From: Candidatus Dormiibacterota bacterium
GTDB lineage: Bacteria; Chloroflexota; Dormibacteria; CF-121
Direction of reading: 5' to 3'
DNA length: 64,000 nucleotides
NCBI GenBank assembly: GCA_035544955.1
Contig: DASZZN010000014.1
Coordinates: forward strand, 196,811-260,810
Part shown: positions 28 through 17,369 of the stretch, one piece after another
Position numbering within the stretch: position 1 is the first letter of the stretch
How the letters are laid out: every line of letters starts with the position of its first letter
Made by a program: the position numbers and the translations under genes
The notes under the pieces: model-generated
The model's input: the letters and a program-made list of their open reading frames with translations, nothing else
Told to the model about the DNA's origin: nothing
Database searches by the model: none

Positions 28-3000
28 ATGCCAACCCACCCTCCGAAGCTTCGGCGCCCAATCAGGGGATACCTTGCGACGCTCACGTGCACGAACGGCT
101 TCGCCCTATGGCTGGCTCCAGCGGGATCCGCTATCACGCTGAAGGCGGTCGGTAATCTCACGCATGCCACCGCGGACCTGGTCTGGGCCGATGGGGAGCG
201 GGTACAAGCGACTGTTGACGGTCAGGCGCAGGAGGTGTCAGTTCAGGCGGAGGGGGCCGGCTGGCGGTTCGGGAACCTTACCGTGCGCCGCGGGCGCACA
301 TCGGACTCGGCCTTGCTTGCTATCTATTTCGCAGAGGGCAGCTGGTTTCCGGTCGAGGCCGGAACGGTCATTGACATCGACAATCAAGCGTTCCTCGTCG
401 AAGCGGACGCCGAGGCCTACCTGGTGAGCCCAGCACGGAACCTCGGCCGCGTTGAGATTGATACATCAGGGGATCCGACCGACGAGCGCATCTTCAAGAC
501 GATTGAGCGCAACCAGGAGCAGCATGACCTGCCCATCTACCTGCAAGGCCAAGGAGACCAGATCCCTGGCCCGGAAGGCCCGGACGAGCCTCCCGATGAG
601 AAGCCTGATGAGCCAATCGACGAGATCAGTCCGGTCCACGCCATGGTCCTGGGCGAATCGGCCGACATCAGGCTGTCGGAGCGCGGGGACGTCGATGAGC
701 TAGAGATGACCGTTGGAGGTCGCCCTTACCGGCTTGCGCCGCAGCAAGTGGGGAGCCTGAACGGCCTTTCGCTGGAGCGCGAGATCCTCGCATCACCGGC
801 TGCGTGGGCGTTCACCGCCGTGAGCGGAGATTCCGGTGGGATCCGGCCGGACGCGTCACTCGAACGAGTCTCGATGGTCGGCGTACCCCAGCGGGAGCTT
901 AATGATTTCCAGCGGTCGCGCAGCGAACTGTTCGCGGCACTGGCGCCGTTTGGCTCGGCTTATGCGGTGATCGACGAGGCGGTGCGTCCTAAGGCTTTTG
1001 CATACGTTCGCGCCTACAAGAAGCTGGTTGAGGCCCTTCCGAAGGCAGGCCGTTACCAGCCGGAATACGACCGGATCCTCCTTATCGACACAGTCTTTTT
1101 AACTGGCGCCGGGGATCGGTACATCGCGCCGACCAACCCGCTAACGATCGCCTTCTATCTGAGCTTCTGGGGAGCTGCGGCAGATTGGTGTGTCGCTGGG
1201 AGCCGCCCATCCGATGCAGATCTGCGGACGATCAGCCCTCGGCATCTTCTGCCGCTCCTCAATGCCGGCGCCATCTGGCATGAAGCAGTCAATTGCGACG
1301 CGTTCCTGTGGCGGCGTTACCAGCCGTTGGTAACGAGCATCCCAGCGATGGACTATGACGATCGCTTCATTGCCCGGAAGCTCGATTTCTTCCTTGATGT
1401 GCACCCGGCCTACAGTGATCCAGACCAGTCGCTGAGCATCTCGCTGTATGAGCCCGGAGATGGCGTGGCAGTAGTGCGAGCTCTCGAAAGGTTCTACTGG
1501 CCCGACTTGACTGCGGAACAGTACGCCAGGCCCAGGCTGCAGCTGAACCTGCTATCCAGAGGGGCGGCCCTGCCGGAGGCGATCGCCCGGCTACTTGGCG
1601 GATCAGGTACCCGCCCAATCGACCATCTTGTCCGATCCCGGGTGACAGTTTCCTCACACGACGCACTGCCGGAACAGGGGTTCGCCAACCTTCCGTTCAG
1701 CCACATTACGTTCGTTCATCGCACAGCAACCGAGCGTCGGCCGGGTCCCGTCAGTCTGGACGAGCGTGCATCGACTTTATTTGTTGCTGGCTTGTGCCCG
1801 GCCTCCCGCCGCGCGTCAACCCGCACACCCAACGGCTGGGAGTTTTACTGGGGAACCTTCGGCGGTGCACTTGTCGGAAGCTTGAACGGGGCAGATGCTG
1901 CCTCCGATCTACAGGCAATCGAACGGCGTTGCCTTGAACTGGTTGGTGGCCAGAACCAGGAGATGCTCCATCAGGGCGAGACCAGGATGCTGGCAACGCG
2001 CGTCAGCTCTAATTTCATGCGGGACGTGTACGCCCGATCCATCTGGGTCGTCCATATGGAACGCCTGATTGGTCTCGAGCTGTTCGAGCCGCAGCCTGGA
2101 TCTCATCAGCGCTATCTCATCCAGTACGAGGAGAGCTTTGCAGGCCTGCCTGGTCTCGACGGGATCACAGCTACGGAGCACGTAGACCCTTATCACAAAG
2201 CGCTGAAGGAGGCGCTCCGCTCGATCGAGATATCGCGGCAGGGGCTCGATCGCCTCTTGAACTTGCTTAATGCCGTCGCCGGTGGATGGGCTCTCGAGCT
2301 CCTACACAGCGGAACGGAGGACGTCCTGGCCATGGTGGGCGTTGTAGCCGCCATAGCGGCCTTGCAGGATCTCGATAATAGCTTCGATCGGAAGGAAGGG
2401 CTTGGTGTCCTTCTCTCCGTTCGCGAGATGCTGGAAGTCCTGCCGGCAACCGTGCGGCCGCCCGATCGATCTGCGTCCGACGATCTCGTCTTCGTCTGGA
2501 TTCCCTTCAACCAGCGAGAGGCTGTTTCCCTAACGGCACGGCTGGTTGAGGTGAAATTCTCAACCCTAGGCCGGCCCGAATTCGCTCTGGCCCGCCAGCA
2601 GCTTGAAAACACGAAGCACTGGCTGGAAGCAACATTCAACTCTCCCGGGCCGGAGCACCTATTTCGAGCCCGAGATATGTCCGAATTCATCCGCGCCGCG
2701 GCAGCCCGCAACCGAACGTTTGGCCTGGGCCCCGCTCCGGATCGTGCCCCGTTTGAGGCCGCACTCGCACTGATTGCGGCGGGTAGCTTTCGAGTCGACG
2801 CGCGGTTCTGGGTCGAGGGGCGCGAACTAGCAAGTGACGTAGTCTCCATCGAGCTAGAAAGTGATTCCGATGCCGTGCGAACCGATCTGCCCGGTGCTGG
2901 TGAGGCGTGCGGCCTGATCCGGCTCGGCAGGCAATGCATAGAGGATCTCGCGGATGGGCGCAGGCTATCGTCAAGCCAGCCCTGGAGCGCACCAGCCTTC

Positions 3001-4209
3001 GCCCAGCCCGGGAAGCCACAAACCTCCAACGAAGCCTCGCCAGCTGCATCCACATCCGCTGGCGCTGGCCAGCCTGGCAGGACTGCCACACCCTCGGTTC
3101 AGCCAGAAGTAGAGGCGGAGGTACGCCGCCTTGCCCGGGAGCTTGATGCCGCCGTCATCAAGTACGATCTCGAGCTCGAGCCGTTCCGTCCGCAACTCGC
3201 CCAGGTGGGGCCCTCGGTAATTAGGTTCAGATCCAAGCCTCTTGGGAAGCAGGCGCTCGAAGGCATTGCGCGCCGGGCCGCTGATCTCGGTAGGGAGGTT
3301 GGCGTGCCGGAGGGCGTGTTAATTGGTCAGGAGCCTTACTACGTGACGGTGGACGTTCCCCGCAGAGAGAGGCAGGTTGTTTACTTCTCCGATCATGTCG
3401 AGAAGCTTTCGGTGGCCCGGCTACCGGGAGCCCTCAGCTTTCTTTTGGGAATCGCGCCGTCCGGCGACGTTGCTGTCGAGGACATCGCTCGTCTGCCGCA
3501 TCTGCTGATCGCCGGCGCGACCGGATCAGGAAAGAGCATCCTTCTCCGGTCTATTCTCTGTTCGCTCCTCCTAGTGCATCCTCCGGATGAGCTGCGTATC
3601 TTCCTCGTCGACCCAAAGCAGATCGACTTCATGCCATTTGAGGATGTGCCTCACCTCGTCAACGGGCGGATCATTACAGATCCCGTTCAAGCTGTTGCGG
3701 ACCTCCAGGAAAACATTGAGGTCGAGCTCTCGCGGCGGCGGCCCATTCTCAAGCGGGCAGGCGTTACAAATGCTCTCGATTTCTATGAGGCGGGCGGAAC
3801 GCGGAAGCAGATGCCGCAGATGGTGATCATGGTTGATGAGTTTGCTGACCTGGCGTCTACGCTCGATCGCACGGGCCGGGCGGCTTTCATGTCGATCATC
3901 CAGCGGTACGGGCAGCTAACTCGTGCATTTGGAATCTACCTGGTCCTGGCCACGCAGCGGCCGAGCGTTCAGGTCATCACAGGCGACATCAAAGCGAATC
4001 TCACAGCACGCGTCGCGCTCAAGCTGCTAGCGCCTCAGGACTCCGTGACCATCCTCGGCCATGGGGGCGCTGAGTCACTGCGAGACAAGGGCGACCTCAT
4101 CTTCGAACATGCTGGTCGGCGGGACCGGCTTCAAGGATTTCTCGTGCGGCCGCAGGACGTTGCTTCCGCGGTCAACCGCTGGAGGCGCGACGGCGGGTCG
4201 GCGCTGTAG
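28..4209 (+). CDS. Giant (1393 aa) FtsK/SpoIIIE-family P-loop ATPase; ~1050-aa N-terminal region of unknown function, C-terminal FtsK-like motor domain
   Basis: Long ORF with GAGG ~6 nt upstream of the ATG at 28. The C-terminal ~310 aa carry Walker A (LLIAGATGSGKS), Walker B (MVIMVDEFADL) and an LATQRPS motif typical of FtsK/SpoIIIE/TraB translocases. The N-terminal region has an acidic low-complexity stretch (PEGPDEPPDEKPDEPIDE), no predicted TM segments and no motif I recognise. Confidence 0.8.
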   Translation: MPTHPPKLRRPIRGYLATLTCTNGFALWLAPAGSAITLKAVGNLTHATADLVWADGERVQATVDGQAQEVSVQAEGAGWRFGNLTVRRGRTSDSALLAIYFAEGSWFPVEAGTVIDIDNQAFLVEADAEAYLVSPARNLGRVEIDTSGDPTDERIFKTIERNQEQHDLPIYLQGQGDQIPGPEGPDEPPDEKPDEPIDEISPVHAMVLGESADIRLSERGDVDELEMTVGGRPYRLAPQQVGSLNGLSLEREILASPAAWAFTAVSGDSGGIRPDASLERVSMVGVPQRELNDFQRSRSELFAALAPFGSAYAVIDEAVRPKAFAYVRAYKKLVEALPKAGRYQPEYDRILLIDTVFLTGAGDRYIAPTNPLTIAFYLSFWGAAADWCVAGSRPSDADLRTISPRHLLPLLNAGAIWHEAVNCDAFLWRRYQPLVTSIPAMDYDDRFIARKLDFFLDVHPAYSDPDQSLSISLYEPGDGVAVVRALERFYWPDLTAEQYARPRLQLNLLSRGAALPEAIARLLGGSGTRPIDHLVRSRVTVSSHDALPEQGFANLPFSHITFVHRTATERRPGPVSLDERASTLFVAGLCPASRRASTRTPNGWEFYWGTFGGALVGSLNGADAASDLQAIERRCLELVGGQNQEMLHQGETRMLATRVSSNFMRDVYARSIWVVHMERLIGLELFEPQPGSHQRYLIQYEESFAGLPGLDGITATEHVDPYHKALKEALRSIEISRQGLDRLLNLLNAVAGGWALELLHSGTEDVLAMVGVVAAIAALQDLDNSFDRKEGLGVLLSVREMLEVLPATVRPPDRSASDDLVFVWIPFNQREAVSLTARLVEVKFSTLGRPEFALARQQLENTKHWLEATFNSPGPEHLFRARDMSEFIRAAAARNRTFGLGPAPDRAPFEAALALIAAGSFRVDARFWVEGRELASDVVSIELESDSDAVRTDLPGAGEACGLIRLGRQCIEDLADGRRLSSSQPWSAPAFAQPGKPQTSNEASPAASTSAGAGQPGRTATPSVQPEVEAEVRRLARELDAAVIKYDLELEPFRPQLAQVGPSVIRFRSKPLGKQALEGIARRAADLGREVGVPEGVLIGQEPYYVTVDVPRRERQVVYFSDHVEKLSVARLPGALSFLLGIAPSGDVAVEDIARLPHLLIAGATGSGKSILLRSILCSLLLVHPPDELRIFLVDPKQIDFMPFEDVPHLVNGRIITDPVQAVADLQENIEVELSRRRPILKRAGVTNALDFYEAGGTRKQMPQMVIMVDEFADLASTLDRTGRAAFMSIIQRYGQLTRAFGIYLVLATQRPSVQVITGDIKANLTARVALKLLAPQDSVTILGHGGAESLRDKGDLIFEHAGRRDRLQGFLVRPQDVASAVNRWRRDGGSAL

Positions 4210-5958
4210 CTTTGGATGATCGTCGCTCGGCGCTAGCAAGCCGTCTTCCTCCATCAGGCCACGGATATGAGCGGCGATTCTTCGCGCAAGGGCGGGAGGT
4301 ACTGCGTTAGCGACCTGAAGCGGCTGCGTTGAGCGCGGCCCGCAGAAGACATAGGTATCCGGGAAACCCTGGATGCGGGCGGCTTCACGGACGGAGATAG
4401 TGCGGTTGAGAACCGGGTGCACAGGAAACGCACGGTGTCCCGCAATCAGCGTCGGGGCGAGGTCAGTCCCCAGGCGACGGTACGAGATCGGACCCTTACC
4501 CGATCCCTTGATACGCGCGATTTTGGCGACGACGGCAGCGCTGTGCGCCATCGTGGAGGCATTAAGAAGGACAGTCCCATTGTCCTGGTGGGCGTATTCC
4601 GCAATCGTTCCCGATGGAAGCCAGGGCAGATCCTCGAGCGCCCTCATCAGCCGGCCCTCCACCGGTTGCACTACGGGCGCTGGAGGCGCTGGCGGAGGAG
4701 CGTCCTTAATATTGCGGCGACGACCGAGGAAAATAAACCGCTTCCTTACTTGAGCGACCCCGAAGTCTGCGGCATTCAGCAGATATTCCCCGGCTGCATA
4801 ATGACTTCTTCCAAGGGAAACCCTCACGCCGTGGAGGAAGCTGAAGCCTTGGACATTCTTCAGACCTGGCACGTTTTCGATGACGATATAGGCCGCATTC
4901 AGCTCCCGAGCGAGCCGAGATACATGCTTGAACAAGACGTTCTTGGGGTCGTTCGCTTGACGGGCGCCCGCGGCTGAATAGCCCTGGCATGGCGGCCCCG
5001 CAAGAAGGACAGCAGGTTCGCCAACGCCCGGTACGAGCCGCCTGACATCGAAAGCTTTAAGCCGCGTCACATCCGCCTCGACAACGGGCACGCCAGGGTG
5101 ATTGGCGCGGTACGTCTGGGCAGCATTGCGGTCCAGCTCAACCGCAAGAGCGATTTGGAAGCCTTCCTGGCGGCAACCAGTCCCAAAGCCACCTGCACCA
5201 GCGAAGAGCTCGACAGCGACCGGATGACGGTCATCCCGGCTTAGTACGCGCCCGGTCCGGCAGAACGAGACCAGCACACACCTATCGCACTTCGGCCTCT
5301 GGCTCGTACATATGGCTCGTCCGTGGTGGACCAGATTCATGTGGAGGCGTTTGCGTATGGCGGGCGTGATCGCGCTCTCGAGCGGGTCGTGGTCCGCCTT
5401 GCGGTTTCCGGTTGTCAATATGCCCAGCCGCTCGACGATTCTGTGCACGTGAGTGTCTACCGCGAACCGCTTTCGGTCGAGCGAATAGGATTGTATGCAG
5501 CGAGCGCTCTTGGGACCGATTCCTGGAAGCGCGTCTAGAAATCTTTCGGCAGCAGCGTCGGACATTGTTCGCAGGTGATCGAGCGTTAGATCTCTTGGTG
5601 GGCTTGCGTATGGCCCTATCTTGCGAGCTTCGTTGTCCGCGCGAACCGCCTCGAGGATCCCGACCAGCTCCCGGGTTCTCGCCCGGTGGAAACCGCCGGG
5701 ACGAAGAAGTTCCCTGAGGTCGGTCGGCCTAGCCGAAAGGACATCCATCCATCTCGGGTAGCGGGCGCGGAGCTTTCTGAACAGCTTCTGATAACAGTCT
5801 TCGCGTGTTTGCCGGCTAAGCAAAATGTAGACCGTCTCGGCAAGCGGGTCTGTGAGATTGCCCAGATCAGCTGACCTGTATGTCACCTCGAGAAGCTCGT
5901 CGATGCGTTCAAGCGTTTGGGCCTGGGTTAGCTCTACCATCGGGCTCTTCCGCCTCAT
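4075..5958 (-). CDS. Fusion protein: N-terminal HhH-GPD (endonuclease III/Mig-like, [4Fe-4S]) DNA glycosylase + C-terminal DNA (cytosine-5) methyltransferase
   Basis: HhH motif LPGIGPKSARCI, catalytic Asp in FAVDTHVHRIV, and a C-x6-C-x2-C-x5-C cluster loop (CTSQRPKCDRCVLVSFC). C5-MTase motifs follow: I (FAGAGGFG), IV (GPPCQGYS), VI (IENVPGL) and X (QVANAVPP). The ORF runs to 6030, but the ATG at 5958 overlaps the upstream gene's TGA (ATGA), so I take the start as 5958. Confidence 0.85.
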   Translation of the reverse strand: MRRKSPMVELTQAQTLERIDELLEVTYRSADLGNLTDPLAETVYILLSRQTREDCYQKLFRKLRARYPRWMDVLSARPTDLRELLRPGGFHRARTRELVGILEAVRADNEARKIGPYASPPRDLTLDHLRTMSDAAAERFLDALPGIGPKSARCIQSYSLDRKRFAVDTHVHRIVERLGILTTGNRKADHDPLESAITPAIRKRLHMNLVHHGRAICTSQRPKCDRCVLVSFCRTGRVLSRDDRHPVAVELFAGAGGFGTGCRQEGFQIALAVELDRNAAQTYRANHPGVPVVEADVTRLKAFDVRRLVPGVGEPAVLLAGPPCQGYSAAGARQANDPKNVLFKHVSRLARELNAAYIVIENVPGLKNVQGFSFLHGVRVSLGRSHYAAGEYLLNAADFGVAQVRKRFIFLGRRRNIKDAPPPAPPAPVVQPVEGRLMRALEDLPWLPSGTIAEYAHQDNGTVLLNASTMAHSAAVVAKIARIKGSGKGPISYRRLGTDLAPTLIAGHRAFPVHPVLNRTISVREAARIQGFPDTYVFCGPRSTQPLQVANAVPPALARRIAAHIRGLMEEDGLLAPSDDHPKLQRRPAVAPPAVDRGSNVLRPHEKSLKPVPPTSMFEDEVALVSQ

Positions 5959-6155
5959 CCCTGCGACCCCGGGTGCGGCGACCTTAGGCGCGCCCACGTG
6001 AGAACATCGGCCTTTCGATAGCGGTAGCACCCGCCAACCTTAGTAAAGGGAAGGCCGCTCGCCTTTCTGAGACGCCACAAGGTGGTGCGGGACGCCTTCA
6101 GGAACTTCCGGAGCTCAGCGTCGGTCAAGAGCTCGTCCGATTCTAGATCACGCAT
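5955..6155 (-). CDS. AlpA/Xis-like small HTH DNA-binding protein (prophage regulatory/excisionase family)
   Basis: 66-aa protein with LLTDAELRKFLKASRTTLWRLRKASGLPFTKVGGCYRYRKADVLTW, matching the AlpA-type HTH. Its stop overlaps the MTase start codon (ATGA). Confidence 0.7.
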   Translation of the reverse strand: MRDLESDELLTDAELRKFLKASRTTLWRLRKASGLPFTKVGGCYRYRKADVLTWARLRSPHPGSQG

Positions 6156-6225: not shown

Positions 6226-7371
6226 CTACATAAGGAATTCCGTCATGAGGCGGGCTGCTTCGCGCTGCATGTCTGGTGTGACGTGCGAGTAGACATCGAG
6301 GGTGATAGCAACGGTGGCATGGCCGAGCATCTCGGCGACGATCTTCGGGTGTATGCCGCGGCTGAGCATTAGCGTTGCGGCCGTGTGCCGAAGATCATGG
6401 AACCGGATCGTCGGCAACCCAGCCTTTCTAAGGAGCGGACGGAAGGCACGTCGCACGACCCACTCTGCCGACAGCGGTCGGCCGAGCTCATCACAGAAGA
6501 CGAGCGTCGTGTCCACCCAGGCCGGGCCGGCTTGCAGGTTTTCCGCAGCCTGAGCCGTTCGGTGTCGGCGAAGAGCCGCAACGGCTTGGTCGGTGAGCGC
6601 GATCTGGCGGCGCGAACGCGCGGTCTTGGGCTCGGTAATAGCGGGTCCGTTTGGCCCTGGCGCCAGCGTTGCCGTCACCCTCGCGGCCGCACGGTCGAGG
6701 TCGAGCTCTGGCCATCTGAGAGCGAGGAGCTCGCCTTGCCGCATGCCCGTAGTCGCGGCCAGGACCCATAGCGCTTCGAGGCGCTCGCCGACGGCAGCCT
6801 CGAAGAGGGCGGCAACGTTTTCGCCGGAAAGAGTCCGCATTTGCGGGCAGGCCATCTTTGGCGGGCGGACTAGACCGGCCGCGTTCCGCGGCACCAAACC
6901 CCAGCGGACCGCGTCCTCAAGTGCCCGATGCAGCACGGCCTGCGCGTGATGAACGGAGGTCGGGCTTGCGCCTCCAGTGAGCATCCGTTCCTGCATCGTC
7001 CGAATATGAAGCGGACCCAGGCGGACGAGCGGGATTCTGCCGATGGCGGGCACGATATGGACTCGGAGGTACTTCTCGTACCGGATCCACGTCGAGAACC
7101 GCAGGTGCGGACGCATGCCAGGCAGCCAGTTCCGCAGGAAACTGCCAGCCGTTTCACGCGTTGGTCGTTGGTGGAGGCCGTCTTCGCGGGCCTTGAGGCC
7201 GGCCATCAGGCGGCGGTGAACCTCAGGCCGCGACTTGCTCACGAAACGATGGCGGTGGCCATCGACCGTGTAGGCAATTTCCCAACGACCGTCCTTGCGC
7301 TCATAGAGGGTACCGTCGCCATTGGCGCCCTTCCTTTTCCGAGTGGTCTTTCGCGAACGTGTATCAATCAT
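6226..7371 (-). CDS. int: Tyrosine site-specific recombinase (phage-type integrase)
   Basis: C-terminal catalytic signature IRFHDLRHTAATLMLSRG...LGHATVAITLDVYSHV (R/HxxR/Y box), an N-terminal SAM-like DNA-binding region, 381 aa. Confidence 0.9.
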   Translation of the reverse strand: MIDTRSRKTTRKRKGANGDGTLYERKDGRWEIAYTVDGHRHRFVSKSRPEVHRRLMAGLKAREDGLHQRPTRETAGSFLRNWLPGMRPHLRFSTWIRYEKYLRVHIVPAIGRIPLVRLGPLHIRTMQERMLTGGASPTSVHHAQAVLHRALEDAVRWGLVPRNAAGLVRPPKMACPQMRTLSGENVAALFEAAVGERLEALWVLAATTGMRQGELLALRWPELDLDRAAARVTATLAPGPNGPAITEPKTARSRRQIALTDQAVAALRRHRTAQAAENLQAGPAWVDTTLVFCDELGRPLSAEWVVRRAFRPLLRKAGLPTIRFHDLRHTAATLMLSRGIHPKIVAEMLGHATVAITLDVYSHVTPDMQREAARLMTEFLM

Positions 7372-7434
7372 CGAAATCAGCTCCCATTGCTCGAGTCAAA
7401 CAGTGTCGACATGGTACCGTCGACGCGCGCATTG

Positions 7435-7749
7435 TCAAGGGCGTTTCTTAGGCGTGTCCCAGGAGTCGTGCGCGATGCGGCGAGATTTATGTCGGCTGAG
7501 TCTCGACAGGCTTTCATCTGCGCCTTCAAGGTGCTGCCAGATCCAGTCCTGCAACGCCTCTCGTGGGACACGAACCGATCGACCGATCCGAACCACGGGC
7601 AGCTCGCCGGTTCTTACCAGGGCGCACACCTTGGTCCGACCAAGCCCAAGCGTCGTCGCCACCTCGGTGATTCGTAATAGCAGCGGTTCCATCTTCTCGA
7701 CGTCGCTCGCTACCGACAGGTCCTCAGCCGAAGGCGTTTGGTCCCTCAT
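7435..7749 (-). CDS. xis: Excisionase-family/MerR-like HTH DNA-binding protein
   Basis: 104 aa with LLRITEVATTLGLGRTKVCALVRTGELPVVRIGRSVRVPREALQDWI (excisionase-type HTH). It sits immediately upstream of int on the same strand. Its start overlaps the stop of the upstream ORF by 4 nt. Confidence 0.7.
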   Translation of the reverse strand: MRDQTPSAEDLSVASDVEKMEPLLLRITEVATTLGLGRTKVCALVRTGELPVVRIGRSVRVPREALQDWIWQHLEGADESLSRLSRHKSRRIAHDSWDTPKKRP

Positions 7750-8102
7750 TGCTTCGACGCTTCAGCCCACAGGGGAAGGGAGACGAAGCCAATCCGGTCA
7801 AGGGATCGGATGAAGGTCTGGTCCGAGGCAACGTTGATGGTGGCGCCATCGCGGTCAGCGATCGAGAGCGCGTCCCCGCTGGCGCCGGCGAGGAGCTTGA
7901 CATCGTCCGCGAGGCGAAGGCGGGTGATCAGCCGGTCTTCCGCACTTCCTTGCTCGTGGCCCGGATCATCCAGGAGAGCCGCAACGAGGCCGCGGAAGCT
8001 GTCCGCCTCGCAACCCCGGAGGAAAACGCCGTCTCCGACCGGATGGAAGAGCATGCGAAGCGGCAGCTCTTGCTGGTCGGCCGGATGGATGGGCCGGTAC
8101 AT
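7746..8102 (-). CDS. Hypothetical 118-aa protein, distal gene of the ligase operon
   Basis: ORF begins 2 nt after the amidoligase stop and overlaps the xis start by 4 nt. No recognisable motif. Confidence 0.35.
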   Translation of the reverse strand: MYRPIHPADQQELPLRMLFHPVGDGVFLRGCEADSFRGLVAALLDDPGHEQGSAEDRLITRLRLADDVKLLAGASGDALSIADRDGATINVASDQTFIRSLDRIGFVSLPLWAEASKQ

Positions 8103-8103
8103 G

Positions 8104-9390
8104 TCAGGCGGCTGCCCCTCGGCGCGTCCGTTGCCAGGCTGACCGCTGGTAGACCCAATAGAGCTTTAACTTGTCCTGCGGCCGGACGAAGATCAGGTCG
8201 GCAAAGCGGCGCAGCAAGCGATCGCCGTCGTCGGGATCGCGTGGGCTGCGGTGACTCCCGAGCGTATGTCGCTCCGGCGGGATGGCCGCGTCGGGCAGCT
8301 CGGCTGCGCGCTTGGTCACCCAGCAGGCCAGCTTGATGTTGGCCTGCAGGCGAACGGGGTCGAGGCTCGAGTCAAAGTACCGATACTCGATCGTCCGATT
8401 GCGGTCCAGGATGTTGCCGAAGTTCAAGCCAACCGAATGGCTGCTACCGACTCGGTTGGCAAGATCGCTGAGGCCCTGGACCTCTTCGAACTGGCCGGAG
8501 CCCATGGGACCACACCAGCGGTAGCCATTGGTACTGCCGCGGTGGCTGCGTCCCCGCTGACCCGTCGCGGCAGCTAGACGGTACATGAGATCCTCCGCCC
8601 AGGCGCACACCTTCGCGACGCGTCGGAATTTGTTCACGTCGTGGTCCATGCCGGCGGAGTCGACCCCCACGTGGACATGCCCACCGGTTCGGCCGGTCGC
8701 TCTCGCTCCGTGCGCTTGCAGGATCTGGCAGACGCGTTCCAGCTGGGCCCACGCCTCGGGGGTGTCCTGGAGGACCGGGCTTACGACCTCGCCCGAAACG
8801 GTGGCGTCGTGCTCAAGCGTCCATTTGCCGGCTACGCGGCTGCTCGAGTGGTATGGCTCCTGGCGAGCGCTCGACGTGAGCCCCGCTTCGTGCAGTGCCC
8901 GAGCGACGGCATTGGGGTCGGCACCGTCGAACTCGATCTCGATACCGAAGGTCTGGTTGGGGTCGCCGATGACGTTCTCGCGCTCATAGCTGGCTGCTTG
9001 TCCGGTCATGGCCAGCCGTTTGAGCTCTCGATGCAGGGCCTCATTGGCCACCAGCGATCGCTCGCCTTCGGGCACCTCCTGTCCCTGAATCCGGAGGAAT
9101 TCGTCCCAGAGCCGCTGGGCCTGCTGCTGCTCTCGGTCCGTGCGCTCCCGCTGCTCCTGATATCTGGCAACCGCTCGGCTGTAGAGCTCGGCCCACTCGG
9201 GCGTGCCGACTGGCGGGTCATCGTCAACGATCGGGGTGGAGGCGACGACCGCCACCGCTGCTCCAAGAACCTCTGGGGCCTGGGCGATAGCGAGAGCGGG
9301 ACCGCCCCGGCCGGATGCTTGGACGGAGACGGCACCATCAGCGACGGCAATCGTGCCGTGCGACGCTCGACTTCCACCCTTGCTCGGCAT
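8104..9390 (-). CDS. Amidoligase (Amidoligase_2 / GCS2-like carboxylate-amine ligase family)
   Basis: Motifs TFGIEIEFDG, TLEHDATVSGEVVSPVL and TGGHVHVGVD match the glutamine-synthetase-like amidoligase/YbdK signature (GxExE ... EivSP ... HvHvg). The start codon directly abuts the stop of the ATP-grasp gene (9391). N-terminal peptide MPSKGGSRAS. Confidence 0.65.
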   Translation of the reverse strand: MPSKGGSRASHGTIAVADGAVSVQASGRGGPALAIAQAPEVLGAAVAVVASTPIVDDDPPVGTPEWAELYSRAVARYQEQRERTDREQQQAQRLWDEFLRIQGQEVPEGERSLVANEALHRELKRLAMTGQAASYERENVIGDPNQTFGIEIEFDGADPNAVARALHEAGLTSSARQEPYHSSSRVAGKWTLEHDATVSGEVVSPVLQDTPEAWAQLERVCQILQAHGARATGRTGGHVHVGVDSAGMDHDVNKFRRVAKVCAWAEDLMYRLAAATGQRGRSHRGSTNGYRWCGPMGSGQFEEVQGLSDLANRVGSSHSVGLNFGNILDRNRTIEYRYFDSSLDPVRLQANIKLACWVTKRAAELPDAAIPPERHTLGSHRSPRDPDDGDRLLRRFADLIFVRPQDKLKLYWVYQRSAWQRTRRGAAA

Positions 9391-10764
9391 CTACCCGGCA
9401 CGAGCCAGCCGTCCGCGCAGCGTCTGTTGGATATGCGCATAAACACTCTTGACCGTTTCCGCCGACATGCCCGGCGCAGCGTTTGCCTCTAGGCAATACA
9501 CCCGGTCGGTCTGCAGGTCCTCGATCACGTCCACGCCCGCGTAATCGAGGCCGACGCGGCGAGCGCCTTCGCGTGCCACGGCCGCGACAGAGCGCGGGAT
9601 GACCTGCGACCGTTCGAAGCTCCACTCCGGCCGCAGATCGTCGGGGGTAGCACCTTCCGGAGGTCGCTTCAGGTAGGCGGAGACAATCCGGCCGGAGAGC
9701 ACCGACACTCGATACTCGCGGCGATCGGGGATGAACTCCTGGAAGCAGTCGTAGCCAGCGCGCTCGGCCTGCGGCCCATCGGCCGGGAGCAGCGCCTTCC
9801 CGCTGCCCCGTGACCCGTGCCGACGCTTGCCGACGACGTGGTTCGAGCCAAGCAACGCGAGGTCTCCCGGATTAACGACGGTCCGCGGCGCGAGCTCGCG
9901 CAAACGCCCCAGCGACTCCACCTGGTCGGAGGCAACCCGGACGGCCTCCGGCTGGTTGAGCGCGACGGCCTCTTGAGGCAGCGGCTGAACAGATCCCCAG
10001 TTGAGGATCAACGCAGGGGAGCCTCCCGGAGGAACTTCCCTGGCGTCTCGAACAATCCGAATCTGGGCGCCCTGCGACGCAACGGCTTCGATGTTGTGTG
10101 CCATAGCCTCGGAAGGGATCGAGGATGGGACCAGGACACACACCGGTACGTCATCCCGGGACGGAGCAAAGGCAATCTCCCGGATTCGCACGCTTCCTGA
10201 TGGTTGATTGGGCGGTGCCTCTGCGCCGGCGACCAAGCCGTGCGGTCGTTGGCTCGCGATTGCGAGCAGGCGCGTCATCGCTTGCTCCTCGGCGGATGGT
10301 TCAACCGCGTATCCTGCCGACAATCCAGCCTCCCGCCGCGCGGCTTCGAAGGTGCGCAGTTCCTGGCGGCGTTGGCGGAAGTCGTCGAGCGCCTGCCGGA
10401 GTGATTCCTCGTCCCCGCTACCAGCGATTCGCTCCAGTTTCCGCAGGCGGGCCAGCACCCGGCGGAGGCGATACCGGTAAAGCTCGTCCGATTCTTCCGG
10501 GCTGAGGCTCCCCTGGCGAGCGGAGAGCTCGTTGAATCGGTCGACCTCCGGACCTCGCCGCAGTCCACGTGCCAGCTCGGCAGCGTCGAAGGCGGGCGCG
10601 AGGAGATCTATAGCCTCCGGCGTCCCGGAGCTCATCGGTTCCGCCGTGTCGGAGGGAATCGAGGAGACGTGCGGTTGAGCAATCTCGTCAAGACCGGGGA
10701 GCGACACGGAGAGCGGTCCCGCGCCGCCGCCGCCCGACGCCCTGCTCCCGCGCTTAGATGGCAT
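9391..10764 (-). CDS. ATP-grasp family ligase (RimK/glutathione-synthetase-like C-terminal domain) with ~200-aa N-terminal region of unknown function
   Basis: C-terminal motifs VVGKRRHGSRGSGKAL, GYDCFQEFIPDRREYRVSVL and VYCLEANAAPGMS (the E-x-N ATP-grasp signature). The ORF extends to 10809, but I prefer the internal start at 10764 (MPSKRGSRAS...), which mirrors the amidoligase N-terminus and overlaps the upstream gene by only 11 nt. Confidence 0.7.
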   Translation of the reverse strand: MPSKRGSRASGGGGAGPLSVSLPGLDEIAQPHVSSIPSDTAEPMSSGTPEAIDLLAPAFDAAELARGLRRGPEVDRFNELSARQGSLSPEESDELYRYRLRRVLARLRKLERIAGSGDEESLRQALDDFRQRRQELRTFEAARREAGLSAGYAVEPSAEEQAMTRLLAIASQRPHGLVAGAEAPPNQPSGSVRIREIAFAPSRDDVPVCVLVPSSIPSEAMAHNIEAVASQGAQIRIVRDAREVPPGGSPALILNWGSVQPLPQEAVALNQPEAVRVASDQVESLGRLRELAPRTVVNPGDLALLGSNHVVGKRRHGSRGSGKALLPADGPQAERAGYDCFQEFIPDRREYRVSVLSGRIVSAYLKRPPEGATPDDLRPEWSFERSQVIPRSVAAVAREGARRVGLDYAGVDVIEDLQTDRVYCLEANAAPGMSAETVKSVYAHIQQTLRGRLARAG

Positions 10765-11941
10765 CTGCAAGCCTGTCTTCGTCGAGGAGTGCGCCGTAGG
10801 TGCGGTCATTGTGGGCGCAATTCAGCAGGAAGCAATTGCGAGCCGAGCGAGCGACGGCCGTCCCGTGTTCCGTTCCCAGGAGACGTCGTCGCTGGGCGAG
10901 CGCGTAGGCCATGCCATTGCAGATCACCAGGCGCCGGCCGGGAGCCGCGCGTCGGTAGGCGGCCAACCGATCCGGCGCATGGACGCCCCCAAGGAGGAAG
11001 GTGACATCGTGCCGCACCGCCTGGTGAAAGAGCGCAATGTCTTCCAGCGTCTCGCGCAGCGCCCGCTCACTGGCGTGGACTTTGCGGCCGTCGCAGAAGA
11101 GCGAGACGGCCGTCAAGGACGGCTGGCTGTTGACCCAGTCAGCCCACAGCTGGCCGTCGGGCTCGAACCGGCTCCAGCCGATGTCAGCGATGGCGGGCAG
11201 CCCAGCCTCGATCAGCTCGTGGAAGAAGATGAACGAGCGGCGTTGCTGAATGAGCTGCTCAAAGCGCGAGTGGTCGTACCAGACGGAGAAGTTCGGCGCC
11301 AGGATCAGGTCGAAACCGAGTCCTCGGAGTTCCTGGATGACCGAGCGGCGATTCAACCAGAGCCCCTCAAGCACGCGATCTTCCACAAAGCACTCCAGTG
11401 CGACCTTCGTGGCGGGGCCCAGCCGGTACACCTCTCGAAGAGGCCGATGGTGCTTGGGCGTGATCCGACTTCCTGTAACCCCGAACACCCGGCCTGCATG
11501 AAGGGCCACCCACGGAATATCCACCGGGTCGGCGTATGCCTGGATCAGCACGGGGAGATGGACAGGCAGGTCCACGGGTTGGTGATGGACGATCGGGCGC
11601 CGCCACGTGAGGTCGAGGCCGCCCAGTTGATTGCTAACGGCTTGGCGGACATCCATACGAAGAAGGGGATTGGTCAGGCAGAGGGCGCACCGATCGTTGC
11701 CGGTGGGGCCATCGCGATGTCCGACCCGGCAGAAGTTGGGTGTCTTTCCGCATCGAGCAGCGGCCGGACAGAGATCACAATTCAGGCCGCAGGCTGAAGC
11801 CACCTCAGGACTCCTCCTCGAAGGCGCTGATGGCCTGCCGGAGGTCAACGAGGACATTGACGACGCCCTGGCATTCGCTCGGCGATAGGCGGCGTCGAAT
11901 ATTGGCGAGCGTCCGGGCGAGTTGGCGGCAGAGGTCGACAA
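10754..11941 (-). CDS. Cys-rich protein of unknown function (N-terminal 7-Cys cluster including CxxxCxxC; possible Fe-S/Zn-binding enzyme)
   Basis: 395-aa ORF co-directional and overlapping with the ATP-grasp gene. It contains ACGLNCDLCPAAARCGKTPNFCRVGHRDGPTGNDRCALC and a second Cys/His patch near the C-terminus (VICNGMAYA...NCFLLNCAHN). The first ~45 aa are low-complexity, so the true start may be the internal MSSLTSG. Confidence 0.5.
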   Translation of the reverse strand: MSTSAANSPGRSPIFDAAYRRANARASSMSSLTSGRPSAPSRRSPEVASACGLNCDLCPAAARCGKTPNFCRVGHRDGPTGNDRCALCLTNPLLRMDVRQAVSNQLGGLDLTWRRPIVHHQPVDLPVHLPVLIQAYADPVDIPWVALHAGRVFGVTGSRITPKHHRPLREVYRLGPATKVALECFVEDRVLEGLWLNRRSVIQELRGLGFDLILAPNFSVWYDHSRFEQLIQQRRSFIFFHELIEAGLPAIADIGWSRFEPDGQLWADWVNSQPSLTAVSLFCDGRKVHASERALRETLEDIALFHQAVRHDVTFLLGGVHAPDRLAAYRRAAPGRRLVICNGMAYALAQRRRLLGTEHGTAVARSARNCFLLNCAHNDRTYGALLDEDRLADAI

Positions 11942-12768
11942 CGATCCCGAGCTGAACCTCGAAGGCGAGCCGGTCTTCCGCCGGCCCAGCGGTGCCGCCC
12001 TCGGCGGTGAGGGCTGCCTCCACCGTTAGGTGCCGATCCTGTCGAAGGCGGTCCACCGCCGCGTGGACTTGGTTGTGGGTGAGGCGGCCAGGTCGGTAAA
12101 CCAGGGCCGCCTGTCGCTCCGGATCATCCAGGCGGGCGATCTGGATTGCGTGCTCAGCCGGCAGGTGGCGCACCCCATCCTGAAGGTGGGGGTCCAGGCG
12201 CAGGATCCTGACCTTGTCCTTGCGCGCCGTCTCCGAAATCCGTAGCGCCCTCTCGGTGTCGCGCCAGCGGGCAAGCGGTTTCGGGACCAGCCCGCCTTCG
12301 AACTTCATCAGGTGAACGTTCTGGGCGATCAGCAGTTGCTTGAGGCCGTCAAGGTGTTCGGTGAAGCCGCCCCGAGTCGTGATGTGCCTCTCGTCTAAGG
12401 GCTGGAAGGGGACAATCGCGTCCCGGAGGAGTTGCTCGGCGACCGTGATGTCGCGGAGTGTCTTGTCCAGCAGAATGCAGTGGGCCTCCTCCACGGGATC
12501 GAGGTCGGAGCGAAGCTGGTTCTCCTCGTACTGTTTCTCGAGGCGCTCGAGGTAGCGCAGCCGAGGATGAAGGCGGGCCAGGACCTGGCTGATGCCCGCC
12601 GCCCGCGCCGCCCGCCACCGCTGCTCGCCGCACACGATCTCGATATCGGCCCGGCGTTCCTGCCGCCGGCTCGACCTCCAGCAGCGGCTGATGGCGCCCC
12701 GCCTTCATCGAGGCCGCGAGCTTGTCGACCAGGTCCATCGACCGTGCCCCTCCTTCGGTTGGGTCCAC
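11805..12768 (-). pseudogene. ParB/Srx-like nuclease-domain protein, disrupted by a frameshift (or sequencing error) near 12640-12650
   Basis: The upstream frame (ORF 12349..12768) gives MDLVDKLAASMKAGRHQPLLEVEPAAGTPGRY, the ParB N-terminal box. The downstream frame (ORF 11805..12635) continues as (D)IEIVCGEQRWRAARAAGI, the GxRRxRAA ParB motif. The two frames join if a single C is removed in ...GRY|EIVCGEQ.... Confidence 0.6.
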
Positions 12769-12847
12769 GACCTCAGAGAGCTACCCCGATCCGGCCCCCA
12801 TTCGCGACCGGGATGCGGGAACTGCACCAGGCAGATTTGATCCCTCG

Positions 12848-13699
12848 TCATTCTCTGCTTGATGGCTGGGAGTCGCCACTCTCCCTCAAAAACTGCGAAA
12901 GTGTGGCACCGAGTTCCTGCTCGCCCCGCCGGCCTAAGCCGGTCGGCCGCACAAGCGGCAGATTCCACCCCATTACCCAGACGGCCTTGGCTCGTTGTCG
13001 AGAGATAGAAGCCCACCAGGTAAGGCGACCAAGCCTCGATTCCGCAACCTGCATCGCTCCGAGGATGCGACCTACCTCAACGTAAACGCCTCGGCCGTTG
13101 CAAAGAAGTGCGGTCGCTGGAAGCGCGGCCACCTGCCACCGAAAGAATTCGGTGTCTGTTGCCCAGAGGGCTGCCGCCTCGGCCGGCCAAGTGCGACCTA
13201 GCTCCGACCACGTTGGGAAGGTCGCCTCCTGGATCAGGTCTAGGTGAACCGCCATTCCAGTGGCGTACGAGATGCCCATCCCGTCAAGCACGTTATTCAT
13301 GTGACCGAACCACCGACCAAAGGTGGGTCGGCCGGGGTCGAAGTAATGCCTCATCGTTTCGATTGCTCGTTCGCACTGTAGATCGCTGAGAGTGTCGCGG
13401 CCAACTGCACCCAGCGAAGTTAGCGTTTCGAAACGTCGGACATTGGAGCCATCGAGCTCAATTAGTCGAGCGCTGTCAGATCGACCGGCGTGTCGTGCGT
13501 ATTCGCGGTACGAAGGGTTGATGGCCACAGTCGCTGTGATGGCCCGGTCTGGATCGCCGAAGAAGAGAACGGGAAGCGACCTGGGCACCGAGTGTGGCGA
13601 TGGAGCTGCTCGCAAGCGCTGGTTGAGGTTCCGCTTCTGCGAAACCGTAAAGGCCTCCGATGGGCGGGCGCGGCTCGTATCACACTCTGCCATAGACAT
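12848..13699 (-). CDS. Hypothetical protein (283 aa)
   Basis: Long minus-strand ORF in the same co-directional array. Protein-like composition, no motif recognised. Confidence 0.4.
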   Translation of the reverse strand: MSMAECDTSRARPSEAFTVSQKRNLNQRLRAAPSPHSVPRSLPVLFFGDPDRAITATVAINPSYREYARHAGRSDSARLIELDGSNVRRFETLTSLGAVGRDTLSDLQCERAIETMRHYFDPGRPTFGRWFGHMNNVLDGMGISYATGMAVHLDLIQEATFPTWSELGRTWPAEAAALWATDTEFFRWQVAALPATALLCNGRGVYVEVGRILGAMQVAESRLGRLTWWASISRQRAKAVWVMGWNLPLVRPTGLGRRGEQELGATLSQFLRESGDSQPSSRE

Positions 13700-13708
13700 C
13701 GGTCGGGT

Positions 13709-14422
13709 TCATGAATTCTTCTTGGGCGAGGACCCTACGCTGCCGAGTCGCGGGTTAGTGGGAAGGCCCTGGGCCTTGGCTTCCCGGTAGTAACCGCGGC
13801 TCTCTGCCTCCATCCATATAAGAACTTCAAGGATCCTTACCGGCGTGACGACGTATCCGCCCTTCACCAGATCATCTCTCAGGGCCTTTATCTCGGTCAG
13901 GTTTGCCCGGAGATCCTCTCGGAAAGCACGCCATGCGGGCATCGTTGCCTGGGCGGCTTTCGTCTTGTCCTGAAGTCTGCCTTGGGTTGACTTCAAGTGG
14001 AGCGCATCGAGATAGAAGAGCACCACCACTGAGTCGAGCATCGGGATATAGTTCCGCCTCTTGCGATGTAGCACTTTTGTTGCTACGGCAGACAGCACGC
14101 CGGGTACCGAGATGGCTGCGCTCAGAAGCGACTCGCCAACTTCTAAATCCGGGTCGAATATCAGGATGTCGGCGTCTACCGGGATTCGCGGGAGTAGCGG
14201 ATCGCAAGCAGCGGCCATCCCACGGTGAACCTTCTGGACCTTTTCTCCAGTAGCCACTCGAGAGTTCATAGAGACTGTCACAAGGATGTCGAGAGGTTCA
14301 ATGCGGTTCGGATCATTCGTTGGGATTGCATCGTAGTACGCGTACTCATTCGGAAAGAAGCGCAAAAGGCGATCCCTGCAGTTCGACAGACTGGGCCCGC
14401 TAGGCAGCTGCAGGTTCATCAA
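13709..14422 (-). CDS. Hypothetical protein (237 aa)
   Basis: Lower-GC ORF directly upstream of 12848..13699 on the same strand. No recognisable motif. Confidence 0.4.
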   Translation of the reverse strand: MMNLQLPSGPSLSNCRDRLLRFFPNEYAYYDAIPTNDPNRIEPLDILVTVSMNSRVATGEKVQKVHRGMAAACDPLLPRIPVDADILIFDPDLEVGESLLSAAISVPGVLSAVATKVLHRKRRNYIPMLDSVVVLFYLDALHLKSTQGRLQDKTKAAQATMPAWRAFREDLRANLTEIKALRDDLVKGGYVVTPVRILEVLIWMEAESRGYYREAKAQGLPTNPRLGSVGSSPKKNS

Positions 14423-15305: not shown

Positions 15306-16238
15306 GTGGCGGTCCCCGATTTTCAGTCCATCATGCTTCCCTTCCTCCAGTCGCTGGCAGATGGTCAACAACAGCGAACGCGGGAGCTAATGCCTCGGCT
15401 TGCGTCGCAGTTTCACCTCTCAGATACGGACCTTCGGCAGCTGCTGCCAAGCGGCACGCAGCGTGTCTTCGAGAACCGCGTCTACTGGGTGAGCAGCTAT
15501 CTAAGGCACGCAGGGCTGATCGAGAGCCCGCAACGCGGGGTTGTCCGGATCACGGAAAATGGGCGCAAGGTCCTAGCTAATCCCCCGGATCGCATCACCG
15601 TCGGATATCTGATGCGACTTCCCAGCTTCCAACCATTCGGAAGCCAAACGACCGCGGCAGGCGGCTTAGGTATAGGACACGTGCCCCCCGCCGTCAAGGC
15701 TTCAGATAGAACACCTGAGGAAGATCTCGAAGCGACCTGGCTCACGATTCGCGACGCGCTGGGTCAGGATCTCCTGGGAAGGATCAAGACTTGCTCTCCC
15801 AGTTTTTTCGAACGCCTCGTGGTTGACCTGCTGGTCACGATGGGGTACGGCGGATCTGTCGTCGATGCAGGCCAGAGCGTCGGCATGTCCGGCGACGGTG
15901 GAGTGGACGGAATCATTAAAGAGGACAAACTCGGTCTTGACGTTGTCTACATTCAGGCCAAGCGCTGGGAGGGGCAGGTCGGTCGGCCAGTGGTACAGGC
16001 CTTCGCGGGGAGCCTTGAGGGATTCCGAGCCCGGAAAGGCGTACCGATTACGACCTCGGGATTCTCAGCCGACGCCCGAACCTACGCGAACCAGATCGAG
16101 AAAAGAATCGTGCTCATCGATGGGACCAACCTCGTCCGGCTGATGATGGAGCACGGCGTGGGCGTTACCAGGGCGAAAACCTACGACGTCCAAAGGATTG
16201 ACCTTGATTACTTCGACGAAGAGGCATTATCCGGTTAG
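15306..16238 (+). CDS. mrr: Mrr-family type IV (modification-dependent) restriction endonuclease
   Basis: N-terminal Mrr_N winged helix (MAVPDFQSIMLPFLQS...LRHAGLIESPQRGVVRITENGRKVL). Mrr_cat motif GMSGDGGVDGIIKEDKLGLDVVYIQAKRW (GDGGxDG ... D ... QxK). GTG start. Confidence 0.9.
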   Translation: MAVPDFQSIMLPFLQSLADGQQQRTRELMPRLASQFHLSDTDLRQLLPSGTQRVFENRVYWVSSYLRHAGLIESPQRGVVRITENGRKVLANPPDRITVGYLMRLPSFQPFGSQTTAAGGLGIGHVPPAVKASDRTPEEDLEATWLTIRDALGQDLLGRIKTCSPSFFERLVVDLLVTMGYGGSVVDAGQSVGMSGDGGVDGIIKEDKLGLDVVYIQAKRWEGQVGRPVVQAFAGSLEGFRARKGVPITTSGFSADARTYANQIEKRIVLIDGTNLVRLMMEHGVGVTRAKTYDVQRIDLDYFDEEALSG

Positions 16239-16485
16239 CAGGGCAAGCACCCAGAACTCGAACCTAGGAAAACCTGATCTACTGATGGCTGATCGGAAGT
16301 GGGGCCTGCGGTCTCGGAAGGGAGAGATCTAAGTCTTGAAGAAGCGTTCTGGTACGCCTACGAAACGCGTCGTCTTCATGGTTTGCCCGTGCAAGGCGGA
16401 GTCGCCGGCAGCATCTAAGTAGTCACGTGCCGGTGCTTATCGATTCGTCTATTTCCCTCGGCTTATCCGCGAATCAATTCCGGGA

Positions 16486-17341: not shown

Positions 17342-17369
17342 CCGGAGTGGTTCCCCATACCGATAATGG

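Follow-up and report, generated by a model that had tools for sequence, protein, structure and literature searches.

A conserved N-terminal octapeptide shared by the ATP-grasp ligase and amidoligase of a Dormibacterota mobile-element cassette: a putative recognition tag

The two ligase genes

The DNA analysed here is a stretch of 64,000 nucleotides from Candidatus Dormiibacterota bacterium (NCBI GenBank assembly GCA_035544955.1, contig DASZZN010000014.1, positions 196,811 to 260,810 of the forward strand), which is referred to in full as the window and within which all coordinates are counted unless a related locus is named. Two adjoining genes on its minus strand, encoding an ATP-grasp ligase and an amidoligase, begin with nearly the same short peptide, which is called the tag below and is followed in each protein by a linker. 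The features of the two genes are as follows:

9391..10764, minus strand: ATP-grasp ligase gene, 457 amino acids, RimK/PsnB/LysX-like fold with a helical N-terminal region (AlphaFold2 and Foldseek)
10741..10764, minus strand: ATP-grasp tag, codons 1-8, MPSKRGSR, start codon at 10764 (homologue comparison)
10600..10740, minus strand: ATP-grasp linker, residues 9-55, hypervariable (predicted local distance difference test, pLDDT, 30-38; no secondary structure)
8104..9390, minus strand: Amidoligase_2 gene (glutamine synthetase-like carboxylate-amine ligase), 428 amino acids (Pfam PF12224)
9367..9390, minus strand: amidoligase tag, codons 1-8, MPSKGGSR (identity 0.86 at residues 1-8 among 86 homologues)
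9226..9366, minus strand: amidoligase linker, residues 9-55, hypervariable and rich in A, V, G and P (pLDDT 25-30; no secondary structure)

The amidoligase scored 68.2 bits against PF12224 (gathering cut-off 22; E 1.3e-18), which places it in Amidoligase_2, and the motifs FGIEIEF and HVHVG were invariant in 83 of its homologues. The ATP-grasp protein matched the Pfam RimK family weakly, at 18.2 bits under a cut-off of 21, and matched PHROG 2599 with an E-value of 1e-21. Its AlphaFold2 model (pLDDT 84) returned PsnB, RimK and LysX/ArgX as the top Foldseek hits (E ~1e-11, probability 1.0), and by this modelled fold the product of 9391-10764 is assigned to the RimK/LysX/PsnB-like ATP-grasp ligases. 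PsnB, RimK and LysX/ArgX are ligases acting on peptide or protein tails.

An alternative upstream start for the ATP-grasp gene lies at 10809, and the 15 codons from 10809 to 10765 were unconserved in relatives. The homologues were mostly called at 455-458 amino acids, from the position equivalent to 10764, and several have a GGAGG sequence 6-10 nucleotides 5' of the ATG of the tag. The 11-nucleotide overlap of the ATP-grasp start with the stop of the preceding DUF4417 gene (ATGCCATCTAA) recurs at many loci. On these grounds, together with the M, V or L found before PSK in the homologues (see below), the start at 10764, which a preceding sequence-only reading of this DNA had taken to be fixed by the shared peptide, is well supported by the comparison of sequences.

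A shared peptide of eight residues

From its start at 9390 the N-terminus of the amidoligase reads MPSKGGSRASHG, and that of the ATP-grasp open reading frame (ORF) from the ATG at 10764 reads MPSKRGSRASGG, so that in MPSK-GSRAS-G the two have 10 of 12 residues identical, and the shared peptide noted in the sequence-only reading is confirmed. The different codon usage which it described was also confirmed, with 5 of the first 10 codons differing between the genes, including Ser AGC/TCT and Arg CGA/AGG, both of which are six-fold-degenerate switches. Among all ORFs of the window, the motif was found at the start of none beyond these two. The pairwise alignment proposed for the first 45 residues was run as a local alignment and gave a score of 49, against 25.9 +/- 5.2 for shuffled sequences.

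Taken by itself, the window offers 10 matching residues in proteins rich in Ala, Gly, Ser and Arg, and a score of at least 49 was reached in 3 of 5000 shuffles. A chance resemblance, or a functionless recent local duplication of the 5' segment, might be entertained on that basis, but the motif is kept, with differing codons, in hundreds of homologues belonging to several phyla, and it switches in both enzymes together from one clade to the next (see below), and these comparative data, which are far stronger than those of the window alone, refute this explanation to the point where it retains practically no probability.

The sequence-only reading had also extended the peptide by including a stretch SV…IAQ.P. 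When the N-terminal regions of the two families were compared profile to profile with hhalign, a probability of 91% and an E-value of 9e-7 were obtained with all of the confidence on residues 1-8, and the same comparison without the first 10 residues gave an E-value of 0.34. On this value a longer module comprising SV…IAQ.P and the helical regions was rejected. The stretch is literally present in both proteins, but it is not significant and is put down to chance; it lies inside the hypervariable A/V/G/P-rich linker and could not be aligned even among homologues of 80% identity. The shared module is therefore an octapeptide, of about 8 residues, and not a 35-residue domain.

Conservation of the tag among homologues

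Homologues of both ligases were abundant in soil metagenomes and in metagenome-assembled genomes (MAGs) labelled mostly Dormibacterota or Chloroflexota. Related loci (L001 and so on), the pairs being mostly from Dormibacterota MAGs, were checked for the same N-terminal module, which proved to be kept in both families. A start of the form [M/V]PSK was present in 86 of 120 amidoligase homologues, and the other 34 were all shorter, so that mis-called starts are likely in these. The motif was present in 93 of 120 ATP-grasp homologues, 23 of which had been called further upstream; in these the residue before PSK was always L, M or V, and a start codon is thus possible at that position. Where loci with starts called downstream were available as DNA, an upstream [ATG/GTG/TTG]-PSK start was present. 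Every related locus including both 5' ends carried [M/V/L]PSKGG[SR]R on both enzymes, in 25 distinct pairs. It should also be noted that in L157 (~8700-8720) the PSKRGSG of the ATP-grasp gene is preceded by CTG instead of ATG, GTG or TTG, which represents either a rare initiation codon or a gene starting elsewhere.

When both strands of 627 kb of related loci were read, the combination of start codon and motif was found in 55 amidoligases and 49 ATP-grasps, and the remaining matches were only truncated copies of the same ligases and three short spurious ORFs. Mean pairwise identity over residues 1-8 was 0.86 among the 86 amidoligases, 0.76 among the ATP-grasps and 0.75 when one family was compared with the other, and fell to 0.12-0.18 over residues 9-40; in the amidoligases both the length and the sequence of the linker differ among homologues. 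The tag (0.76-0.86) is also better conserved than the catalytic domains, at 57-67% mean column identity. Conservation as a by-product of the overlap with DUF4417 was rejected, as the amidoligase tag overlaps no gene and is yet the better conserved of the two. Within the PSK clade, co-variation of Arg versus Gly at position 5 is only suggestive and is not relied on.

Synonymous sites within the tag were free to vary. Pro was encoded by CCG, CCA, CCC or CCT, Gly by GGN, and Ser by AGC in the amidoligase and by TCT, TCC, TCG or AGC in the ATP-grasp, and the start codon of tagged genes was ATG, GTG or TTG. This variation points to selection on the peptide rather than on an RNA or DNA element.

Tag variants in other clades

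An exhaustive search recovered a more distant ATP-grasp clade (35-48% identity, 547-622 amino acids) whose members begin with MPKRR[SG], and in each metagenome locus fetched the partner amidoligase has the same variant. The paired N-termini are as follows:

L026: MPKRRSGSG / MPKRRSSAI
L027: MPKRRAATA / MPKRRSAVI
L028, L029, L033: MPKRRSVAS or LPKRRSAIS / VPKRRGSGV
L065: LPKRRSRAP / LPKRREGRR

No locus with mixed tag types was found among 25 PSK/PSK pairs and 3-5 PKRR/PKRR pairs, and the change from PSK to PKRR (MP-S-K-GG-RR vs MP-K-RR) has hit two unrelated proteins alike. Other clades carry tags of the forms MSCDxRRR, MSCRSNPGSSAITS and MGSGxRIDHQHH.

Relatives of the amidoligase at 35% identity were found in 101 Clostridium plasmid records (C. 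perfringens in all matches listed) and on Streptomyces plasmids. A Tcp plasmid of C. perfringens carries TcpH … dcm - DUF4417 - amidoligase in this order, the N-terminus of the amidoligase being MPKRRSNTIANT. An MPKxR start was present in 108 of 120 clostridial amidoligase homologues (down to 44% identity), the Tcp-plasmid protein of C. perfringens among them, with M1, P2, K3 and R5 invariant and followed by [SN]-[TN]-[IT]-[A/I/S] and then by a Gly/Ser-rich linker. Several clostridial amidoligases (P0390-P0420) also contain a SWIM zinc finger (PF04434) between the tag with its linker and the amidoligase domain.

Streptomyces alboflavus plasmid pMDJK44.1 (L072) has the order Replic_Relax - ParB_N - DUF4417 - three amidoligases, and all three amidoligases begin (M/V)GSG[TS]RIDHQHH[LA]VA, the first two being only 50% identical overall. 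The RefSeq start of the third (WP_159399817.1; L072 8502-10118) apparently lies ~230 nucleotides too far downstream, and an in-frame upstream GTG yields (M)GSGSRIDHQHHAVAPT, with a tag identical to those of its two paralogues.

The MSCD type was found where a ParB-like gene is followed by a 753-amino-acid GGACT/AIG2 protein, a 1992-amino-acid amidoligase and a 1412-amino-acid fusion of ATP-grasp and amidoligase, all of which carry MSCD[ST]RRR.[YH][WY]. These consecutive proteins (L161/L162, 1659-14239) combine their GGACT, amidoligase and ATP-grasp domains with long N-terminal regions containing Zn-ribbons and resemble the polyvalent proteins of mobile elements. A second fusion of ATP-grasp and amidoligase, P0266, has its MSCDxRRR tag at an upstream GTG, so that both fusions, P0263 and P0266, are tagged in this way; the existence of such fusions suggests that the two enzymes cooperate. 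Another locus has MSCRSN[PH]GSSA[IM]TSYARATSGL at the start of the ATP-grasp and again on the gene that follows. Each cassette thus has a lineage-specific N-terminal peptide, placed on enzymes of three unrelated folds. The claim that the shared peptide is a selected module rather than a product of chance is borne out by its conservation at the peptide level, by the concerted change between clades and by the analogous tags on related cassettes, although its length is ~8 residues and not ~35.

The tag was not a feature of the phage-type enzymes. In 81 phage-type amidoligases from 80 IMG/VR loci the catalytic motif is preceded by 6-20 residues and no tag is present, with one exception, which belongs to a Dormibacterota element filed as viral. 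A single-sequence scan of IMG/VR found nothing, and the profile scan returned these untagged phage amidoligases apart from the Dormibacterota exception. No cassette protein matched the defence and anti-defence families of PADLOC, NCBIfam had nothing specific for the cassette proteins, the ATP-grasp had no match among the PLSDB plasmids, and neither a single-sequence nor a profile search found a solved relative of DUF4417. The literature searched gave no description of the tag, of the long tagged ligases with their linkage to DUF4417/ParB, or of a function for the cassette of DUF4417 and ligases. The tag is widespread and has apparently not been described before.

The tagged N-termini as predicted tethers

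In the AlphaFold2 models of the two window proteins, residues 1-55 had pLDDT values of 25-38 and no secondary structure, and the hypervariable linker after the tag is predicted to be a disordered tether. In neither ligase was the tag docked on its own catalytic domain (alignments of 70 and 83 sequences). This last result bears on whether the tag acts in cis as a substrate or pseudosubstrate, its Lys or Ser, or the Pro exposed at the N-terminus by loss of Met, being modified by the ligases for self-regulation, or the peptide sitting in the active site as an autoinhibitor. Such a role would suit an ATP-grasp whose closest structural relatives act on peptide or protein tails, the long flexible tether could let the tail reach the active site, and the tags have invariant nucleophiles, Lys in both PSK and PKxR and Ser in PSK. 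Besides the undocked models, it is opposed by the occurrence of the same tag on three enzyme classes with different chemistries, including the GGACT cyclotransferase, and by the existence of tag types free of Lys (MSCD..., MGSG...), and a role in cis is considered quite unlikely.

The strict position of the motif next to the start codon, and the frequent overlap of these starts with an upstream stop, which suggests translational coupling, raise the matter of whether the N-terminus sets the protein level, either as a degron or stabiliser (Pro at position 2 dictating removal of Met) or as a nascent-peptide or early-codon element tuning the translation of coupled genes. The free variation of synonymous codons makes an RNA element unlikely. 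The tags, with up to ~27 conserved residues in the MSCRSN type, are too long and specific for a simple N-end rule, and a degron would leave the concerted change on all cassette enzymes unexplained. A function in setting the protein level is accordingly thought very unlikely.

Genomic context of the tagged cassettes

The two ligase genes of the window belong to an operon-like run on the minus strand which extends from a DUF6308 gene to a tyrosine integrase (14422 to 6226). Its other members are as follows:

13709-14422, minus strand: DUF6308 gene
12848-13699, minus strand: ORF of 283 amino acids with no assigned family
11805..12768, minus strand: ParB-like gene, broken by a frameshift near 12630-12650 into two ORFs that overlap
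10754..11941, minus strand: DUF4417 gene with a Cys-rich N-terminus, start uncertain (Pfam PF14386, E 8e-6)
7746..8102, minus strand: conserved ORF of 118 amino acids 3' of the amidoligase (homologous ORFs in L001, L004, L157 and L159)
7435..7749, minus strand: putative HTH_17 excisionase-like gene (by synteny with an HTH_17 ORF at this place in related loci)
6226..7371, minus strand: tyrosine integrase, which marks where the integrated element ends (Pfam Phage_integrase, E 2.8e-25)

In 45 of 49 loci DUF4417 was on the same strand as the ligases, and in 41 of 49 no gene lay between it and the first tagged ligase 3' of it, the stop of the one often overlapping the start of the other. It was preceded by ParB_N in L001, L004, L157, L072 and L161. 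The frameshift in the ParB-like gene of the window reads ...GTPGRYR and then IVCGEQRWRAARAAG..., and the same position in related elements holds an intact ParB_N protein of 346-376 amino acids (L001, L004, L157), the closest relative, L005, being without ParB. The split gene of the window is either a pseudogene or an assembly error.

In L001, L004 and L157 the genes occur in the order VirB4, CHAP or SLT, type IV coupling protein (T4CP), Replic_Relax, ParB_N, DUF4417, ATP-grasp, amidoligase and integrase. TcpC-like and DnaN-like genes are present in L033, and TcpE, TcpF, TcpG and TcpH in L074. Where the sequence context suffices, tagged cassettes sit in conjugative elements. The element of the window is syntenic with L157 (WNGJ01000005.1) 3' of the amidoligase, where a 120-amino-acid ORF, HTH_17 and integrase follow. 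Compared with L157, the window at 6226-14422 has kept the integrase-proximal end of an integrative and conjugative element, and the genes for VirB4, T4CP and relaxase are missing; the synteny suggests that it is a truncated relative of the L157 element. What follows instead is an island of lower GC content (57-59% GC, 14-28 kb).

This setting gives some weight to the tag as a signal for recruitment or translocation by a type IV secretion system (T4SS), by which the ligases would be loaded onto the coupling protein or the DNA in transfer, enter the recipient along with the element and act early, for example against restriction or defences. T4SS genes adjoin each of the cassettes whose known surroundings are long enough (L001, L004, L157 and L072 with VirB4, T4CP and Replic_Relax; L033, L071 and L074 with TcpC, TcpE or TcpH), the neighbours include typical establishment and anti-restriction cargo (methyltransferases, SET, nucleoside deoxyribosyltransferase), and the phage amidoligases are without the tag. 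Secretion substrates are usually marked by a common signal on unrelated proteins together with a disordered linker, and the giant multidomain relatives resemble polyvalent proteins proposed to travel with DNA (PMC5512222). Opposed to this are the different tags found with the same type of T4SS (Replic_Relax, ParB, VirD4-like), PSKGG in Dormibacterota and MGSGxRIDHQHH in Streptomyces, the intact tags of the window and of L005 without an adjacent T4SS, and the absence of the tag from the relaxases and all other T4SS-associated proteins of the loci. The known substrate signals of these systems, moreover, are C-terminal or internal. A transfer signal is thus regarded as possible but rather unlikely. 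Were it so, the N-terminal peptides would be a new class of loading signal by which conjugative elements hand ATP-grasp, amidoligase and GGACT enzymes to the transfer apparatus or nucleoprotein, a proposal which is put forward tentatively and with low confidence; the enzymes would enter the recipient with the DNA and there modify a target of the host or of the element. Such a signal would range over soil bacteria of the Dormibacterota/Chloroflexota type, the pCW3-family Tcp plasmids of C. perfringens and Streptomyces plasmids.

The neighbouring genes are also DNA-centred (ParB, methyltransferases, a DnaN-like clamp) and a Lys/Arg cluster is present in all tag types (K4 and R8; KRR; RRR; R in GxRID), which would suit a generic basic arm that binds nucleic acid electrostatically and, needing no specific protein receptor, holds the enzymes close to DNA or RNA. 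An arm of this kind does not need an invariant Pro2, a position next to the initiator Met, an invariant Ser3 or Cys3, or the conserved N-T-I-A and HQHH segments, and 1-2 charges on a 50-residue tether would give little affinity, with no AT-hook GRP core present; it seems an improbable account of the tag.

Several other features were observed in these regions. The DnaN-like beta sliding clamp gene of L033 (9482-10579) lies directly 3' of DUF4417 in an MPKRR-type cassette and adjoins the TcpC-like gene. In the window, the sequence adjoining the cassette (15306-25192) has a defence-island-like content, with an Mrr restriction enzyme (15306-16238), a SIR2_2 protein (18244-20103) followed by an ORF of 474 amino acids, and a superfamily 1 helicase with AAA_11/AAA_12 domains (22826-25192). 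Just past the integrase, 4075-6030 on the minus strand encodes a 651-amino-acid fusion of an endonuclease III-like HhH-GPD glycosylase with an iron-sulfur motif and a C-5 cytosine DNA methyltransferase, and 28-4209 on the plus strand encodes a protein of 1393 amino acids with a single C-terminal FtsK/SpoIIIE domain, possibly acting as a DNA translocase or as an EccC-like ATPase. A strong positive AT skew (0.2-0.5) was detected at 47900-49500 over two minus-strand ORFs, where no tandem repeats were found, and is probably an effect of coding-strand composition.

Comparison with known targeting peptides

The microcompartment encapsulation peptides of Pdu and Eut enzymes are amphipathic helices of ~18 residues which bind shell proteins. 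They resemble the tag as short N-terminal peptides on unrelated enzymes of an operon, with a poorly conserved linker and portability between folds, and differ from it in that the ligase cassette occurs in the context of a conjugative element. This class was rejected, since no helix was predicted in residues 1-55 and no shell-protein genes were found in the window or the loci. The capsid-targeting sequence of phage T4 is a prohead-specific N-terminal signal of ~10 residues, cleaved by the prohead protease. It is likewise an N-terminal signal common to unrelated proteins of a mobile element, which in T4 sends them with the DNA. The tag did not conform to this type, as the loci have T4SS genes and no capsid genes and the phage-type amidoligases are untagged.

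The signals known on T4SS substrates are a positively charged C-terminal tail or an internal domain, read by the coupling protein. The ligases share with conjugation substrates that they are encoded next to T4SS genes and that some relatives are giant multidomain proteins; the tag differs from those signals in being N-terminal. Polyvalent proteins have been proposed to be co-transferred with conjugative DNA, and ATP-grasp and amidoligase are not discussed among the domains of these proteins (PMC5512222).

A further likeness is to the ParA-activating peptides, since the tag is basic, lies at the extreme N-terminus on a flexible tail and occurs on ligases adjoined by ParB-family genes. In ParB/Spo0J, ParG and MinE, N-terminal Lys/Arg peptides activate the ATPases ParA/MinD. 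The tag is unlike these peptides in sitting on ligases and in having no GLGRGL-type motif. This class was rejected, the ParB_N proteins in L001, L004 and L072 beginning with sequences unrelated to the tag and the loci containing no called ParA-like gene. A Tat or Sec signal peptide, which would show S/T-R-R-x-F-L-K or a basic n-region ahead of a hydrophobic h-region and an AxA cleavage site, was rejected by inspection, in that many ATP-grasp tags contain RR with no FLK and no hydrophobic core after it; the linkers after the tags are hypervariable and rich in A, G, P, T and S, and ATP-dependent enzymes would presumably be inactive outside the cell. An AT-hook (core R-G-R-P) was rejected as well, no tag type having the GRP core.

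Peptide-ligation systems of phages and plasmids comprising Amidoligase_2, ATP-grasp, GGACT and GATase were reportedly described by Iyer and colleagues in 2009. The cassettes belong to the same families, for which the Pfam description of PF12224 gives a predicted chemistry in which amino acids or peptide tags are ligated at the expense of ATP and are also removed. The phage and AIG2-linked amidoligase systems have short, untagged forms, whereas the forms in the cassettes are long, tagged and linked to DUF4417/ParB.

A portable recognition tag as the favoured explanation

The N-terminal position, the selection on the peptide, the disordered tether, the portability between folds, the concerted change and the restriction to conjugative elements together suggest a recognition tag, and a tag read by one common receptor is the simplest account of these features. 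We therefore favour, at a probability of about one half, the shared peptide as a portable N-terminal recognition tag through which the enzymes dock to a common receptor encoded by the element in the cell. The sequence-only reading had listed docking, tagging and localisation together, and the choice among them is one that we infer.

By this mechanism a short linear motif on a long disordered tether would mark each enzyme of a peptide-ligase cassette, namely the ATP-grasp and the amidoligase in the window and elsewhere also the GGACT cyclotransferase. The tag would bind in trans to one common receptor inside the cell, encoded by the element, for which the DUF4417/ParB assembly encoded immediately upstream is suspected as the likeliest candidate. 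Binding may gather the separately translated enzymes at one site for joint action on one substrate, which would be what gene fusion achieves in some relatives.

Several points weigh against a recognition tag of this kind. In the MSCD-tag locus L161 no DUF4417 was detected, and the clostridial cassettes had no ParB in their vicinity; within the sequence seen, therefore, neither of the two candidate receptors occurs throughout. The fusions of ATP-grasp and amidoligase are still tagged, which implies that the tag would do more than unite those two enzymes. Each tag type probably marks one clade, and the change from PSK to PKRR would then be essentially one concerted switch between two clades and not many independent events. 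The element of the window, finally, has no type IV secretion genes and a broken ParB, yet its tags are intact; this could fit a role in the donor cell, and recent decay of the element is also possible.

Significance of the tag

Where unrelated enzymes carry a common short N-terminal address label, a compartment, scaffold or export route usually lies behind it. The label described here marks a conserved and uncharacterised cargo module of conjugative elements, consisting of DUF4417 and the tagged ligases, often with ParB, which spans uncultured soil phyla, toxin and resistance plasmids of C. perfringens and plasmids of Streptomyces. The tag also fixes the true starts of mis-called genes, since about one quarter of the database entries, and at least one gene in RefSeq, have been given a start too far downstream, and it provides a simple sequence signature with which such cassettes can be found. 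Its presence on the Tcp plasmids of C. perfringens and on Streptomyces plasmids makes the question experimentally tractable. The receptor would show what these enzymes act on and at which stage, whether in the donor, on the DNA or in the recipient, and if the label were a transfer signal it would represent a type IV secretion signal of a new kind.

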